Shown here one piece after another: positions 1-4,407 of a stretch of 4,410 nt of DNA. Origin of the DNA: a virus (lineage: Duplodnaviria > Heunggongvirae > Uroviricota > Caudoviricetes); the IMG/VR virus record IMGVR_UViG_2724679236_000009, positions 1 to 4,410 of that record; one strand, 5' to 3'. Positions within the stretch are counted from its first letter, which is position 1. Every line of letters starts with the position of its first letter. Under the pieces are notes generated by a model that was given only the letters and a program-made list of their open reading frames with translations, was not told where the DNA came from and ran no database searches. Position numbers and translations under genes: made by a program.

Positions 1-423
1 ACTGGCTACCTGCATGAGGCTATTTTTTGTTTCGTCCGCTTCCCGGATCCGAAACAGTTTTTCTGCTTCTGCATCTTTCACCCAGGCTGTGCCGTTCCAC
101 TTCTGATATTCCCCTTCCGGGGATAACCAGGTGACATTTTCCGGTAACGGACCAAGTTCAGAAATAAATAACGCGCTCCCTGATTCCACGTTATAAACCG
201 TTTTACCCCGATGATCTTCAACGAGATGCCATGACTCCTCTTCACTGTTGAAAACAGCCACGAAACCAGCCGGAGTATCCGGTGGAGCAATATCCGTAGA
301 ATTAGCTGGCAGACCTGTATGCGGTGGAATATATGCATCACCTTCACCAATAAATTCATTAGTTCCGGCCAGCAGGTTATAGATTTTTATAGTCCGTGAT
401 TGTTCACTCATTCTGAATGCCAT
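1..423 (-). CDS. tfa: Tail fibre assembly protein Tfa (chaperone for side tail fibre), truncated by the window edge: 141 N-terminal codons present, remainder lies beyond position 1
   Basis: Minus-strand ATG at 423..421 opens a frame that runs without stop to position 1. My own translation begins [141 protein letters not shown], which is near-identical over its length to phage lambda Tfa as I recall it. The supplied ORF track misses this gene because it has no stop in the window. SD-like GTGAGG (complement of 432..437) sits 8 nt upstream of the ATG. Position immediately downstream of stf matches lambda gene order. Confidence 0.9.
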
Positions 424-3400
424 TATGCAAGCCTCACAATATAGTTAAATGCGATGTTTTTGACGGTGTTTTCCGCGTTACCCGCAGCGTTAACGGTGAT
501 GGTATGTCCATGCGCACCCAATGCCACTGTGTGTGCATGGGCACCAATGCCTACGGTATGGTTATGCTGACCAATATTGACGGTATGAGCGTGAGCCCCG
601 GCAGAGCTTGACACCTGGTTGGTTCCTGATACCTGTACGCGTTGTTTACCACCAACAGAGTCACCACCATAGCGCCCACCGACAGTGTGTGTATGCGCTC
701 CCGTATTGTTTGTCGTTTTTGTGCCGTGGTTAAACGTGCTGACCGTTTTTGTCCCGTAATCAAACGAACTGGTTGTTTTCGTCCCCAAATCCGTACTGGA
801 TGCACTGGCACTGTGGGTGTGAGATTTAATGCCGTCCTGTTCCTGTGACAGAATTTCACGACCACTGACGGGCTTGCCCTTAATCATCCAGCCACGCATA
901 TCAGGGATCACGCCTGACGGATAAGCGACTGCAAGTTTCGGGTATGCAGATTTGTCAAAAGTCTGCCCCTGCATCAGGGCATAACCAGACGGAACGGTAT
1001 CTGATGGCCACGGGATTGGTGCGCCGACTGGGTAGCTTTCTGGTGGAAGATTTTTCGAGGTATAAACTTCTGCCCAGCCTTCCTCAAAACCATAACCGTC
1101 TCTTGAAGAACGGTAGAACAGACCACCATTTCTGTAATGCGCCTTCATCTGCAAGGTCCGGCAACTTCCGACTCCGGTATAGAAGTTAACCAGAATATAG
1201 CTGTCGCCAGAGCGGGTGACATTGTAAGCGCCTGATTCGGCATTCCAGGGAACGCCACCATCCGCATCGGCATATGTATCCGTTGCCCTTCTGGCAAAAG
1301 CAGCCACATGCGCGGCGGTTAAAGTAATATCTTTTGAACCATCAAACTCAACCCCAGAAACCAGTCTTGGCGTTTGCAGCTTTGTTGCTGTCAATGCGTT
1401 ACCGTTCAGACTTGCGGACAGTTTGGTTCCAATAACCAGTTCGCCGGTTGCGTTATCAATAGCAAACGGTCTTAATGCATTCCAGCCACCATAAACATCA
1501 CCTTGATTGGTAAGCAGCAGATAAGTTTTAGCGCCGTCATTTCTCCATAATGCACCATATTCCCCACCTATCATTCGAATCTGATTACCACCACGCGCTA
1601 CAATTTCGTCTGTTGCGAAAAGTTTTTTGCACGACAAGTTATCGTTAACAATTAACGAATGAGATTCGTAAAAACCGCGCCCACTTTTAAAATCAAGGAT
1701 AACGTCAGCTGCGACACATTCTGTCGCCGGATTTATTGCCCCAAACTTATAGGTCGTATCATTAACAACGAGATCAGCACCCGGTGTGGATATTGACAGG
1801 CCATCTTCGATAAACGCAAAAACAGGGAAAGCAGCACCATCAACATAGAACACAGAGCGCAAATCATCGCCCTTATTACTCATCATTATTGAGTGAATGG
1901 CTCGTTCATTGTTTTGATATTGCCAGAACATTCCATAGGCATAACGCCCCCTGTCAGTCCAGCCGCCAGGCATAACGAATCCATTAAACTCACAGTTATT
2001 TAGTGGATCGTTCGCAGTTCGTGTTGCGGTAGTAATAATTACTCTTGATGCCAGCTCGCTTACTGAGCCAGCAGAGCGCATAACAACAACAGGGTAATAT
2101 TTCCCCGGTGTTGCACCTGCCGGAGCATTAACGCGCACATAACGCATACCATGCTTAGCAGCAAAGTCGGTTTTGCTGACCGCATTAATGTTGTTCAGGA
2201 AAGCGCCCTTATCTGGAATATCTTTACCGTTCTGATCTTTCTGCAGACGTTTCTCAGCATTGTCATTGGCTGCTTTTACTGCCTTTGGCGTTGCCGCCAG
2301 TGACTCGGAAGTGCTGTTGGTCGCGTTACTAAGTTTCACAACACCTTTAGTTGTAAGACTTGCGTCTTCCATCGCAACCGCGCCAGCAATCTCTTCAGCA
2401 CGATCAGCGGCAGCTTCTGCACGAGTCGCAGCGGATTCAGCGGCAGTTTTGCTCTGAGATGCAGCCGTCGCACTGCCTGCTGCTTCTGTTGCCTTCGTGG
2501 ATGCCGTTGTGGCGCTGCCCTTTGCTGCTGACGCTTGTCTGGTCGCCTCATCTTTTGAAGCAGACGCCGATGATGCCGATGACGCCGCCGAACTGGCGGA
2601 CGATGCGGCTGCCGCCTTAGAGGAAGCAGCATTGTCTTCTGAAGTCTTTGCATTTGTTTCAGAGGTTTTTGCTGCCGATGCTGAATTTTTAGCAGCTGTA
2701 GCCTGACTCGTCGCCTCAGTCGCTTTTGCGGTAGCTGTTGTCGCTGATGACAATGCGTTTTCCGCAGATTTTCCAGCGGCGGTGGCACTGGCTGAGGCCT
2801 GCCCGGCACTTGTTGACGCGGCACTGGCTGACGACGCAGCCGCTGTTTTTGAGCCTGCCGCAGCTGAGGCACTCTGTTCCGCTGCCGTTTCAGAGGACTT
2901 AGCGTTTGTCTCAGACGTCTTTGCCGCCTTCGCAGAATTTCCTGCTGCCGTTGCCGAAGAAGCTGCACTACTGGCGCTCGAGGCTGCGTTCGTTTCTGAT
3001 GATTTTGCCGCCTCTTTTGAAGCCGCTGCATCCCTGGCTGACGTGGCAGCTTCTGACGCCTTCGTGGTTGCAGTAGATGCAGAAGTGGCCGCAGATTTTT
3101 GTGACGCTACAGCATTCGTTTCTGACGTTTTCGCATTCGTCTCAGACGCCTTTGCCGCCTTCGCAGAATTTCCTGCCGCCGTTGCCGAAGAAGCGGCACT
3201 ACTGGCGCTCAAGGCTGCGTTCGTTTCTGATGATTTTGCCGCCTCTTTTGAGGCTGCGGCATCCCTGGCTGACGTGCTGGCGGCACGTGCTGAATTTCCC
3301 GCATCAGCGGCATGACTCGCCGCCTGATTGGCTGATGCACTGGCATCGCTGGCTGATTTCTTCGCGGCTGCCGTATTCTGTGCAACCGCGGAGGCGTTAC

Positions 3401-3743
3401 GTGACACCTCTTCCACCATCTGCTCAAAGCGACGCAGTGCCTCCGGCCGGACATCATCCTCCGTCATTGCACCGAGGAAATCATTCAGTGTGCCCGGCTT
3501 TGAGTCCTCATACACGGTGATAATCCCGGCATGTGACGGTGGAAATCCCTCCACCAACAGAATGACGCTGTACTGGCCGAACTCAACGTCCATTGTGTAA
3601 CGCCCGGCTTCATCCGGGTTTTCTGAAGCCACCGTGTTCACCACCACCGTGGTGCTGTTACGTCTGGCTTTCAGCTGGATTGTGCAGTTCTGTACCGGTT
3701 TTCCTGTACCGTCTTTCAGTACACCTGAAATCTTTACTGCCAT
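423..3743 (-). CDS. stf: Side tail fibre protein Stf, lambdoid type, intact full-length (~1106 aa from ATG at 3743; the ORF track starts at an in-frame GTG at 3749, two codons upstream)
   Basis: Single 3.3-kb minus-strand ORF with stop TAA at 425..423. N-terminus (M)[35 protein letters not shown]...[33 protein letters not shown] matches the lambda Stf (orf-401) N-terminal domain as recalled. Contains the conserved fibre motif [33 protein letters not shown] (about 2282..2350), a long Ala/Ser/Thr-rich repetitive shaft, and a C-terminal HxH-rich tip ending ...[31 protein letters not shown] at 3743 is preferred over GTG at 3749 because GGGG (complement of 3749..3752) is 5 nt upstream of the ATG and the GTG lies inside that SD-like element. 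Confidence 0.92.
432..437 (-). promoter_or_regulatory. Shine-Dalgarno-like element for tfa, embedded in the last codons of stf
   Basis: Minus-strand sequence ...AUUGUGAGGCUUGCAUAAUG: GUGAGG is 8 nt upstream of the tfa ATG, and the stf stop overlaps the tfa start (TAATG). Confidence 0.5.
2902..3045. repeat. Copy A of an in-frame ~144-bp direct repeat inside the stf shaft-coding region
   Basis: 2902..3045 and 3133..3276 align without gaps at about 94% identity (roughly 9 substitutions), offset 231 bp = 77 codons. They encode the duplicated peptide [19 protein letters not shown](A/L)[21 protein letters not shown](A/T)SETNAK. Confidence 0.85.
3133..3276. repeat. Copy B of the in-frame ~144-bp direct repeat inside the stf shaft-coding region
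   Basis: See copy A. Shorter degenerate units encoding K(T/S)SETNA recur around 2620..2700 and 3105..3150. Confidence 0.85.
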
Positions 3744-3754: not shown

Positions 3755-3781
3755 AAAAAAGCCCGCCTGAACCGGCGGGCT
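3755..3781 (-). terminator. Putative Rho-independent terminator downstream of lom, directly abutting the stf ribosome-binding site
   Basis: On the minus strand the RNA would read AGCCCGCC-GGUUCA-GGCGGGCU (8-bp GC-rich stem, 3760..3767 pairing with 3774..3781, 6-nt loop) followed at once by UUUUUU (complement of 3755..3760). On the plus strand the A-run precedes the hairpin, so this is a terminator for minus-strand transcription only. Confidence 0.6.
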
Positions 3782-3807: not shown

Positions 3808-4407
3808 TCAGAATTTATAACCGACACCCACGATGAAACCATCAGTGCGCCAGTCACCACTGCCGGAGCCTTCATAAGCAATATCAATGGCCACGGATTC
3901 GGTCGGGTTAAACTGCACGCCAGCCCCCCACGCCAGAGACGTGTTACTGTGGCGACCGTCATCACTTCCGGTCAGCACATCGTGCGTTTTCCCCTTGTTG
4001 TCAGTTACGCGGAGATAATCCCCGGAGAAAGTCGACACACGGCTGTAAGCCACACCCGCCATCGCATACGTGCTGAACCATTCATTCACGCGCACAGATG
4101 GCCCCGCCATCACGCTGAACCAGCGGTTACGCACAGAATCTTCATGCCAGCGGGTATCGCTGTAACGGGTAAGCTGGCGATTCCTGTCTCCTGCATAGCT
4201 GAATGACGTCACCATTCCCAGCGTGTCCGTAAACTCATAACGGTATTTCACGTTAATCCCGTTAAGCTCATCGCTGCCGGAAACGTTCGTCGGGGCATGA
4301 AGATAGCCCGCGCTCAGCGTGGACTGATGTTCAGACGCCCATGCAGGCGCACCGGATACGGCCAGACAGATGGCTGCGGACAAAATGGCTGCACAAACTT
4401 TACGCAT
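3808..4407 (-). CDS. lom: Lom outer membrane protein (Ail/Lom/OmpX-family 8-stranded beta-barrel; lysogenic-conversion type gene), 199 aa, intact
   Basis: ORF with ATG at 4407..4405 and stop TGA at 3810..3808. N-terminal signal peptide [25 protein letters not shown]-terminus ...[24 protein letters not shown] matches the lambda Lom C-terminus as recalled and ends in the terminal Phe typical of outer-membrane beta-barrels. Alternating aromatic/hydrophobic stretches ([31 protein letters not shown]) fit beta-strands. Sits immediately upstream of stf as in lambda (J-lom-stf-tfa). Confidence 0.9.
4336..4407 (-). other. Predicted Sec signal peptide of Lom (24 aa, predicted cleavage after AWA)
   Basis: N-terminal MRK (positive n-region), hydrophobic core [16 protein letters not shown], then A-x-A motif (AWA) before SEHQ. 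Called by eye only. Confidence 0.6.

Follow-up and report, generated by a model that had tools for sequence, protein, structure and literature searches.

The last part of the side tail fibre (Stf) of a lambdoid prophage, encoded at positions 426-1040 on the minus strand of the window (the whole 4,410-nt stretch of Caudoviricetes DNA analysed here), is very probably a receptor-binding tip module of the phage T4 gp37 type. Homology to the T4 tip, conservation of its His-x-His (H-x-H) motifs, hypervariability of a short head segment, boundaries of DNA mosaicism and linkage to the chaperone gene were observed directly, and a domain-level annotation of the fibre end is now possible, comprising a collar, a needle, a head and six predicted metal sites. 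The Stf of the window represents a hitherto uncharacterised allele of a familiar module: the tip needle of the T4 and lambda fibres is already described, and publications exist both on how lambda Stf is related to the gp37 tip and on the H-x-H motifs of lambda (PMC7291167, PMC11705849). The mechanism of the tip is covered by the 2XGF structure, by T4 mutagenesis and by the earlier lambda Stf comparisons, and our results add nothing new to it.

Organization of the lom-stf-tfa locus

Three genes were recognised in the window, all of them on the minus strand:

4407..3808, minus: lom, 199 aa; Pfam Ail_Lom, E = 4e-119
423..3743, minus: stf, side tail fibre, 1106 aa from the probable ATG start at 3743; stop codon at 423-425
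1..423, minus: tfa, tail fibre assembly chaperone, 141 of 193 codons in the window; Pfam Caudo_TAP; phrog_105

The listed stf open reading frame begins at a GTG (3749) and comprises 1108 codons, with Pfam phage_tail_N matching from residue 3. The start is probably the ATG at 3743, giving 1106 aa; this choice is backed by the phage_tail_N alignment and by public gene calls, GGGGTGAG precedes the ATG, and the exact 1106-aa product has been called on 11 public contigs. Residue numbers given here follow the 1108-aa reading frame, and two must be subtracted to obtain those of the real protein. The ATG of tfa and the TAA of stf overlap by one base; full-length Tfa has 193 aa in public contigs, and the 141 residues present in the window are 91% identical to lambda Tfa. 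In public contigs the genes are ordered L-K-I-J-lom-stf-tfa, followed by NleG effector genes. The fibre thus displays the features of a lambdoid Stf/Tfa pair, namely an N-terminal phage_tail_N domain (E = 1e-71), a location after J and lom (Ail_Lom), and a tfa gene directly downstream.

A strong terminator-like hairpin, with 7 G-C pairs out of 8 and a trailing TTTTTT, was observed on the minus strand between lom and stf (3760-3781), just upstream of the Shine-Dalgarno sequence and ATG of stf; it may partly shield stf-tfa from transcription coming from lom. An Rfam search of the window returned no matches. Small overlapping open reading frames in other frames on both strands (417-865) were considered and discarded as unsupported, being located inside a strongly conserved coding frame.

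Homology of the Stf C-terminus to the T4 gp37 tip

A phmmer search with the last 325 residues of Stf against all PDB chains yielded 2XGF, a crystal structure of the receptor-binding tip of T4 gp37 (E = 4.7e-78, with the last 205 aa aligned). The match spans query residues 121-325 and chain residues 27-242, includes both collar segments, and displays 65.7% identity over 204 aligned positions. Every H-x-H motif of Stf aligns to one of T4, and the T4 numbering so obtained yields the published iron ligands H929 and H931 (PMC6957217), by which the register of the alignment was checked. Matches to PDB chains were confined to 2XGF, 8JU3 and the collar of a short tail fibre (9CUY); no solved lambda-type Stf tip was among them, nor was any significant match to single-site fibres of the gp12 type other than that collar region. 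The original prediction proposed a T4-type, His-rich tip dependent on Tfa, and suggested its alignment with T4 gp37 and lambda Stf as a check; the 2XGF match, the aligned motifs and the adjoining, lambda-like tfa all bear out this central idea.

Pfam domains on Stf are phage_tail_N (3-136), Gp34_trimer (666-764) and Collar (909-956). According to PMC6957217, the T4 gp37 collar comprises residues 811-881 and 1010-1026 and the needle residues 882-1009, with seven coordinated Fe ions along its length. These limits were transferred to Stf through the 2XGF alignment, giving the following domains:

825..1040, minus: collar, first part, aa 904-975; equivalent to T4 811-881, from the 2XGF alignment and Pfam Collar
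681..824, minus: descending needle strand, aa 976-1023; H-x-H 1 and 2, two FDYGTK-type repeats
600..680, minus: head, putative distal receptor-binding tip, aa 1024-1050; equivalent to T4 934-963; hypervariable
477..599, minus: ascending needle strand, aa 1051-1091; H-x-H 3-6, 9-residue period
426..476, minus: C-terminal collar return, aa 1092-1108; equivalent to T4 1010-1026 (D10 limits); nearly invariant

One claim of the original prediction requires correction at this point, since it placed the distal tip of the fibre at the C-terminus of the chain. In the T4 fold the chain is returned to the collar, so that in Stf residues 1092-1108 would rejoin the collar, the C-terminus would not be the distal end of the fibre, and this end would correspond to the head.

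An AlphaFold2 monomer computed from a 51-sequence alignment was a poor model (mean pLDDT 54.5, pTM 0.20), as expected for an obligate interdigitated trimer; the axis-facing geometry of the Stf histidines is accordingly assigned by homology.

Number, enrichment and conservation of the H-x-H motifs

The 92 C-terminal residues of Stf (GAHTHTV...IVRLA) are encoded at window 426-701, minus strand. Stf carries six H-x-H motifs, five of which are located within this stretch, while the SHTHSAS motif lies 40 residues upstream, where the needle begins just after the collar (T4 H883/H885; D11 begins at T4 882):

813..821, minus: H-x-H 1, His977/His979 (SHTHSAS), equivalent to T4 His883/885; outside 426-701; 100% conserved
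687..695, minus: H-x-H 2, His1019/His1021, equivalent to T4 His929/931; 100% and 99% conserved
585..593, minus: H-x-H 3, His1053/1055, equivalent to T4 His966/968
558..566, minus: H-x-H 4, His1062/1064, equivalent to T4 His980/982
531..539, minus: H-x-H 5, His1071/1073, equivalent to T4 His989/991
504..512, minus: H-x-H 6, His1080/1082, equivalent to T4 His998/1000

Motifs 3-6 follow each other at an exact spacing of 9 residues, in a unit that reads [I/L]-G-x-H-x-H-T-[V/I]-x. The name 'His boxes' was reportedly given to motifs of this kind by Tetart, Krisch and co-workers in the 1990s. The six motifs and their distribution, with SHTHSAS upstream of the others, had been correctly described in the original prediction, and they greatly exceed the number expected from composition: 0.35 motifs are expected in whole Stf and 0.97 in its last 160 aa, and in neither case did any of 20,000 shuffles reach six; in the last 92 aa, five motifs were found against 0.97 expected, a number reached by 12 of 20,000 shuffles.

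Conservation was assessed in an alignment of 104 tips, consisting of the tip from the window, T4 gp37 residues 811-1026 and 102 non-identical homologue tails. All 12 motif histidines are 99-100% conserved, T4 included. In five of the six motifs, the glycine at position -2 of the first His is invariant, which fits the report that any side chain at T4 G964 would clash with H929 (PMC6957217). A compositionally simple and repetitive region with a 9-residue period might be suspected of accumulating H-x-H motifs by chance or low complexity, as a by-product of a Gly/Ala/Thr-rich repeat without specific role. The result of the shuffles and the conservation across the 104 sequences argue against such an origin, as does the lack of any DNA tandem repeat beneath the His boxes in a TRF search, and we consider its probability negligible.

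A further histidine, His1008, is found outside any motif, in the second FDYGTK repeat, which reads FNHGTK (aa 1006-1011, window 717-734). It was considered as a remnant of the second metal site of T4, and this candidate was rejected: in the 104-tip alignment, 35% of the homologues have His and 59% have Tyr at this site, which is a variable position of the FDYGTK repeat and therefore not a metal ligand.

A hypervariable head within conserved flanks

In the 104-tip alignment, the columns corresponding to aa 1022-1050 display an entropy of 2-3 bits and insertions of up to ~40 columns, while the flanks are almost invariant. The variable segment thus separates the last motif of the descending strand from the first of the ascending strand, as in a gp37-type tip. 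The same pattern was found in DNA comparisons of window 1-1100. The identity to lambda is 81-87% throughout, and only positions 604-685 are unalignable; the identity to two further loci, assigned through subject coordinates to phage ev099 and to a prophage of E. coli AH62, is 90-93% throughout, with positions 561-746 unalignable. A head that cannot be aligned amid alignable flanks indicates an exchangeable cassette. Furthermore, the tip is not confined to long fibres, as at 87-94% identity it also ends proteins of only 276-327 aa, compared with the 1106 aa of Stf. The head sequence itself was found exactly in one E. coli and one Escherichia albertii genome (E. albertii NBRC 107761).

The boundaries between alignable and unalignable DNA (560/561, 603/604, 685/686 and 746/747) are located within or next to the His-box and FDYGTK repeats. 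Together with the occurrence of the same tip on fibres with differing shafts (276-358 aa or 1106 aa), this could suggest that the His boxes persist chiefly as DNA linkers for homologous recombination of head cassettes, with metal binding secondary or absent. However, among the window, lambda and ev099 the His codons vary between CAT and CAC without any change of the residue, so that conservation acts on the protein, and alanine substitution of homologous T4 histidines (H929A, H931A) abolishes plaque formation (PMC6957217). A linker role and a metal role are, moreover, not mutually exclusive, and an explanation in which the former replaces the latter appears very unlikely. We therefore retain the reading of the His boxes as predicted metal sites that also border an exchangeable head.

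In T4, alanine substitutions within N937-Y949 abolish plaque formation, and several of them lose OmpC binding (PMC6957217). These plaque-essential positions lie in the stretch equivalent to the Stf head, where only two of the critical T4 positions are kept, both of them glycines. Lambda Stf residues 578-774 have been modelled on 2XGF, and lambda Stf binds OmpC (PMC7291167); as the head cassette of the window is replaced with respect to lambda, the OmpC specificity of lambda Stf is not to be assumed for the window Stf. The original prediction had assigned host range to the His-rich tip. The specificity segment does lie inside 426-701, at the head (aa 1024-1050, window 600-680) and not at the His repeats, which make up the conserved scaffold; in addition, side fibres of the lambda type serve adsorption in an accessory capacity (PMC7291167), and host range would thus be shared with the J tip fibre.

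The cassette with the 27-residue head occurs in prophages of E. coli and E. albertii and on short fibres of 276-327 aa. As a tentative proposal, which we consider possible and on balance doubtful, a short needle of six sites that bears a minimal head of 27 residues might constitute a distinct specificity cassette directed at a receptor other than the OmpC/LPS used by T4 and lambda. In that case, needle length would be matched to the depth of the target on the cell surface through the number of H-x-H 'rungs'. For the re-targeting of lambdoid particles, window 600-680 would be the segment to swap or mutate, leaving the flanking His boxes intact.

Apparent co-inheritance of tfa with the needle

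One continuous DNA block, ~90% identical to lambda and to the locus assigned to ev099, spans tfa together with the final ~46 codons of stf (window 1-560). This block is shared although the heads differ, and the fibre-binding N-terminal part of Tfa is nearly identical to that of lambda. Hence, the chaperone seems to be inherited together with the ascending needle and the collar return, both conserved, and not with the head. From the near identity of N-terminal Tfa despite differing heads, and from the shared block, we suspect by inference that the target of Tfa on the fibre is the conserved needle or the C-terminal part, and not the head. Functional replacement of T4 gp38 by lambda Tfa is mentioned in PMC7291167, which cites Montag 1989.

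Proposed architecture of the Stf tip

Following the homologous T4 structure, three Stf chains would form a collar, from which each chain would descend a thin six-stranded beta needle to a small intertwined head at its far end, and then climb back to the collar. In each H-x-H motif, the two imidazoles would be exposed on the same face of the strand, so that three chains would offer six His ligands to one octahedral metal ion on the trimer axis, which is Fe(II) in T4. Six metal sites are predicted from the Stf needle sequence, two coordinated via the descending and four via the ascending strand; the identity of the metal and the axial and octahedral geometry are those suggested by the homologues. 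Together with the invariant -2 glycines, the ions would hold the register of the three chains and make the needle stiffer, and folding would require the Tfa chaperone encoded directly downstream. Receptor specificity would reside in the 27 hypervariable residues that form the head and separate motif 2 from motif 3; conserved His-box sequences border this head, and the breakpoints of cassette exchange lie within them or next to them.

For T4 gp37, PMC6957217 and PMC6116203 describe the motifs as seven iron sites that are octahedral and lie on the trimer axis, and the original prediction was right in this respect. Octahedral Fe bound by H-x-H motifs has also been reported in P2 gpV, the phi92 spike and the fibres of R-type pyocins, and registration points for trimer folding and stiffness have been suggested as roles of such sites (PMC6116203). 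The original prediction extended iron to gp12, which does not agree with the crystal of that protein: one zinc is present, after refolding in zinc salt (PMC6116203). The metal of Stf could likewise be other than iron, the motif being of the same kind. In a variant of the proposed architecture, the fold and the axial His sites would be right and the ion in vivo would be zinc, nickel or another divalent metal; the Stf sequence specifies no metal, and the natural ligand of gp12 is uncertain (PMC6116203). Against this, the closest homologue, T4 gp37, has iron, as do the H-x-H sites of gpV, phi92 and the R-pyocins, and another metal is therefore improbable. We favour iron, as in gp37, in the description above.

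Comparison with known fibres

The T4 gp37 tip (2XGF, 785-1026) and the Stf tip are alike in the collar, the H-x-H needle, the C-terminal return and the chaperone-dependent assembly. Six of the seven T4 H-x-H motifs align exactly with those of Stf, whereas the second T4 motif (H915/H917) and residues 975-979 of the returning strand are absent from the window; in the 104-tip alignment, both are insertions found only in T4. As judged from these absences, the Stf needle is not a one-to-one copy of that of T4: six metal sites (2 + 4) are predicted, compared with the seven (3 + 4) of T4, and the needle would be slightly shorter. The number of H-x-H motifs in the family ranges from 5 to 9; seven is thus a property of T4 that does not define the family, and the six motifs of the window fall within this range. 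The head sequences of the two fibres are unrelated save for two glycines, and the module is carried by a lambdoid siphophage side fibre in the window and by a myophage long fibre in T4.

With Ur-lambda Stf (C-terminal part orf-314) and its Tfa, the window shares the lom-stf-tfa order and an N-terminal phage_tail_N domain. The two tips are 63% identical and their flanks are near-identical, whereas the head is replaced. Lambda has eight H-x-H motifs (3 descending and 5 ascending) compared with six (2 + 4) in the window, its largest gap between motifs is of 45 residues and not 31, and the window shaft is ~330 aa longer.

T4 gp12, P2 gpV, phi92 gp138 and the R1/R2 pyocin fibres have in common the H-x-H motif, with six His around one axial ion (PMC6116203), and a Pfam Collar domain is common to gp12 and the window Stf. 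These fibres differ from Stf in their surrounding folds and in having one site, compared with the predicted stack of six. Among 94 distinct homologues of the window tip, 81 display the 2 + 4 layout, and the gap containing the head measures 30-50 residues, 31 being the most frequent length; the window tip is the commonest form of the family.

Shaft mosaicism and downstream genes

The shaft of Stf is itself mosaic. Residues 666-764 (window ~1455-1752) match the trimerisation domain of T4 gp34 (Pfam Gp34_trimer, E = 7e-27), and residues 815-909 (window ~1023-1305) match tail fibre S of phage Mu (8JU3, E = 1.7e-20). In the Ala/Ser-rich part of the shaft, on the minus strand, a direct repeat of 160 nt was found at window 2886-3045 and 3117-3276, with 91% identity and a spacing of 231 nt. 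This repeat represents an in-frame duplication of 77 codons in an AAKxSETNA-type shaft, and the fibre may vary in length at the duplicated segment (2886-3276).

Downstream of tfa (locus positions ~10057-15321), public contigs encoding the identical Stf carry, at the prophage end, two genes for NleG-type T3SS effectors together with one omptin and one hydrolase gene. A prophage end of this NleG/omptin kind points to a host that is probably an attaching-effacing Escherichia, either E. albertii or EPEC-like.
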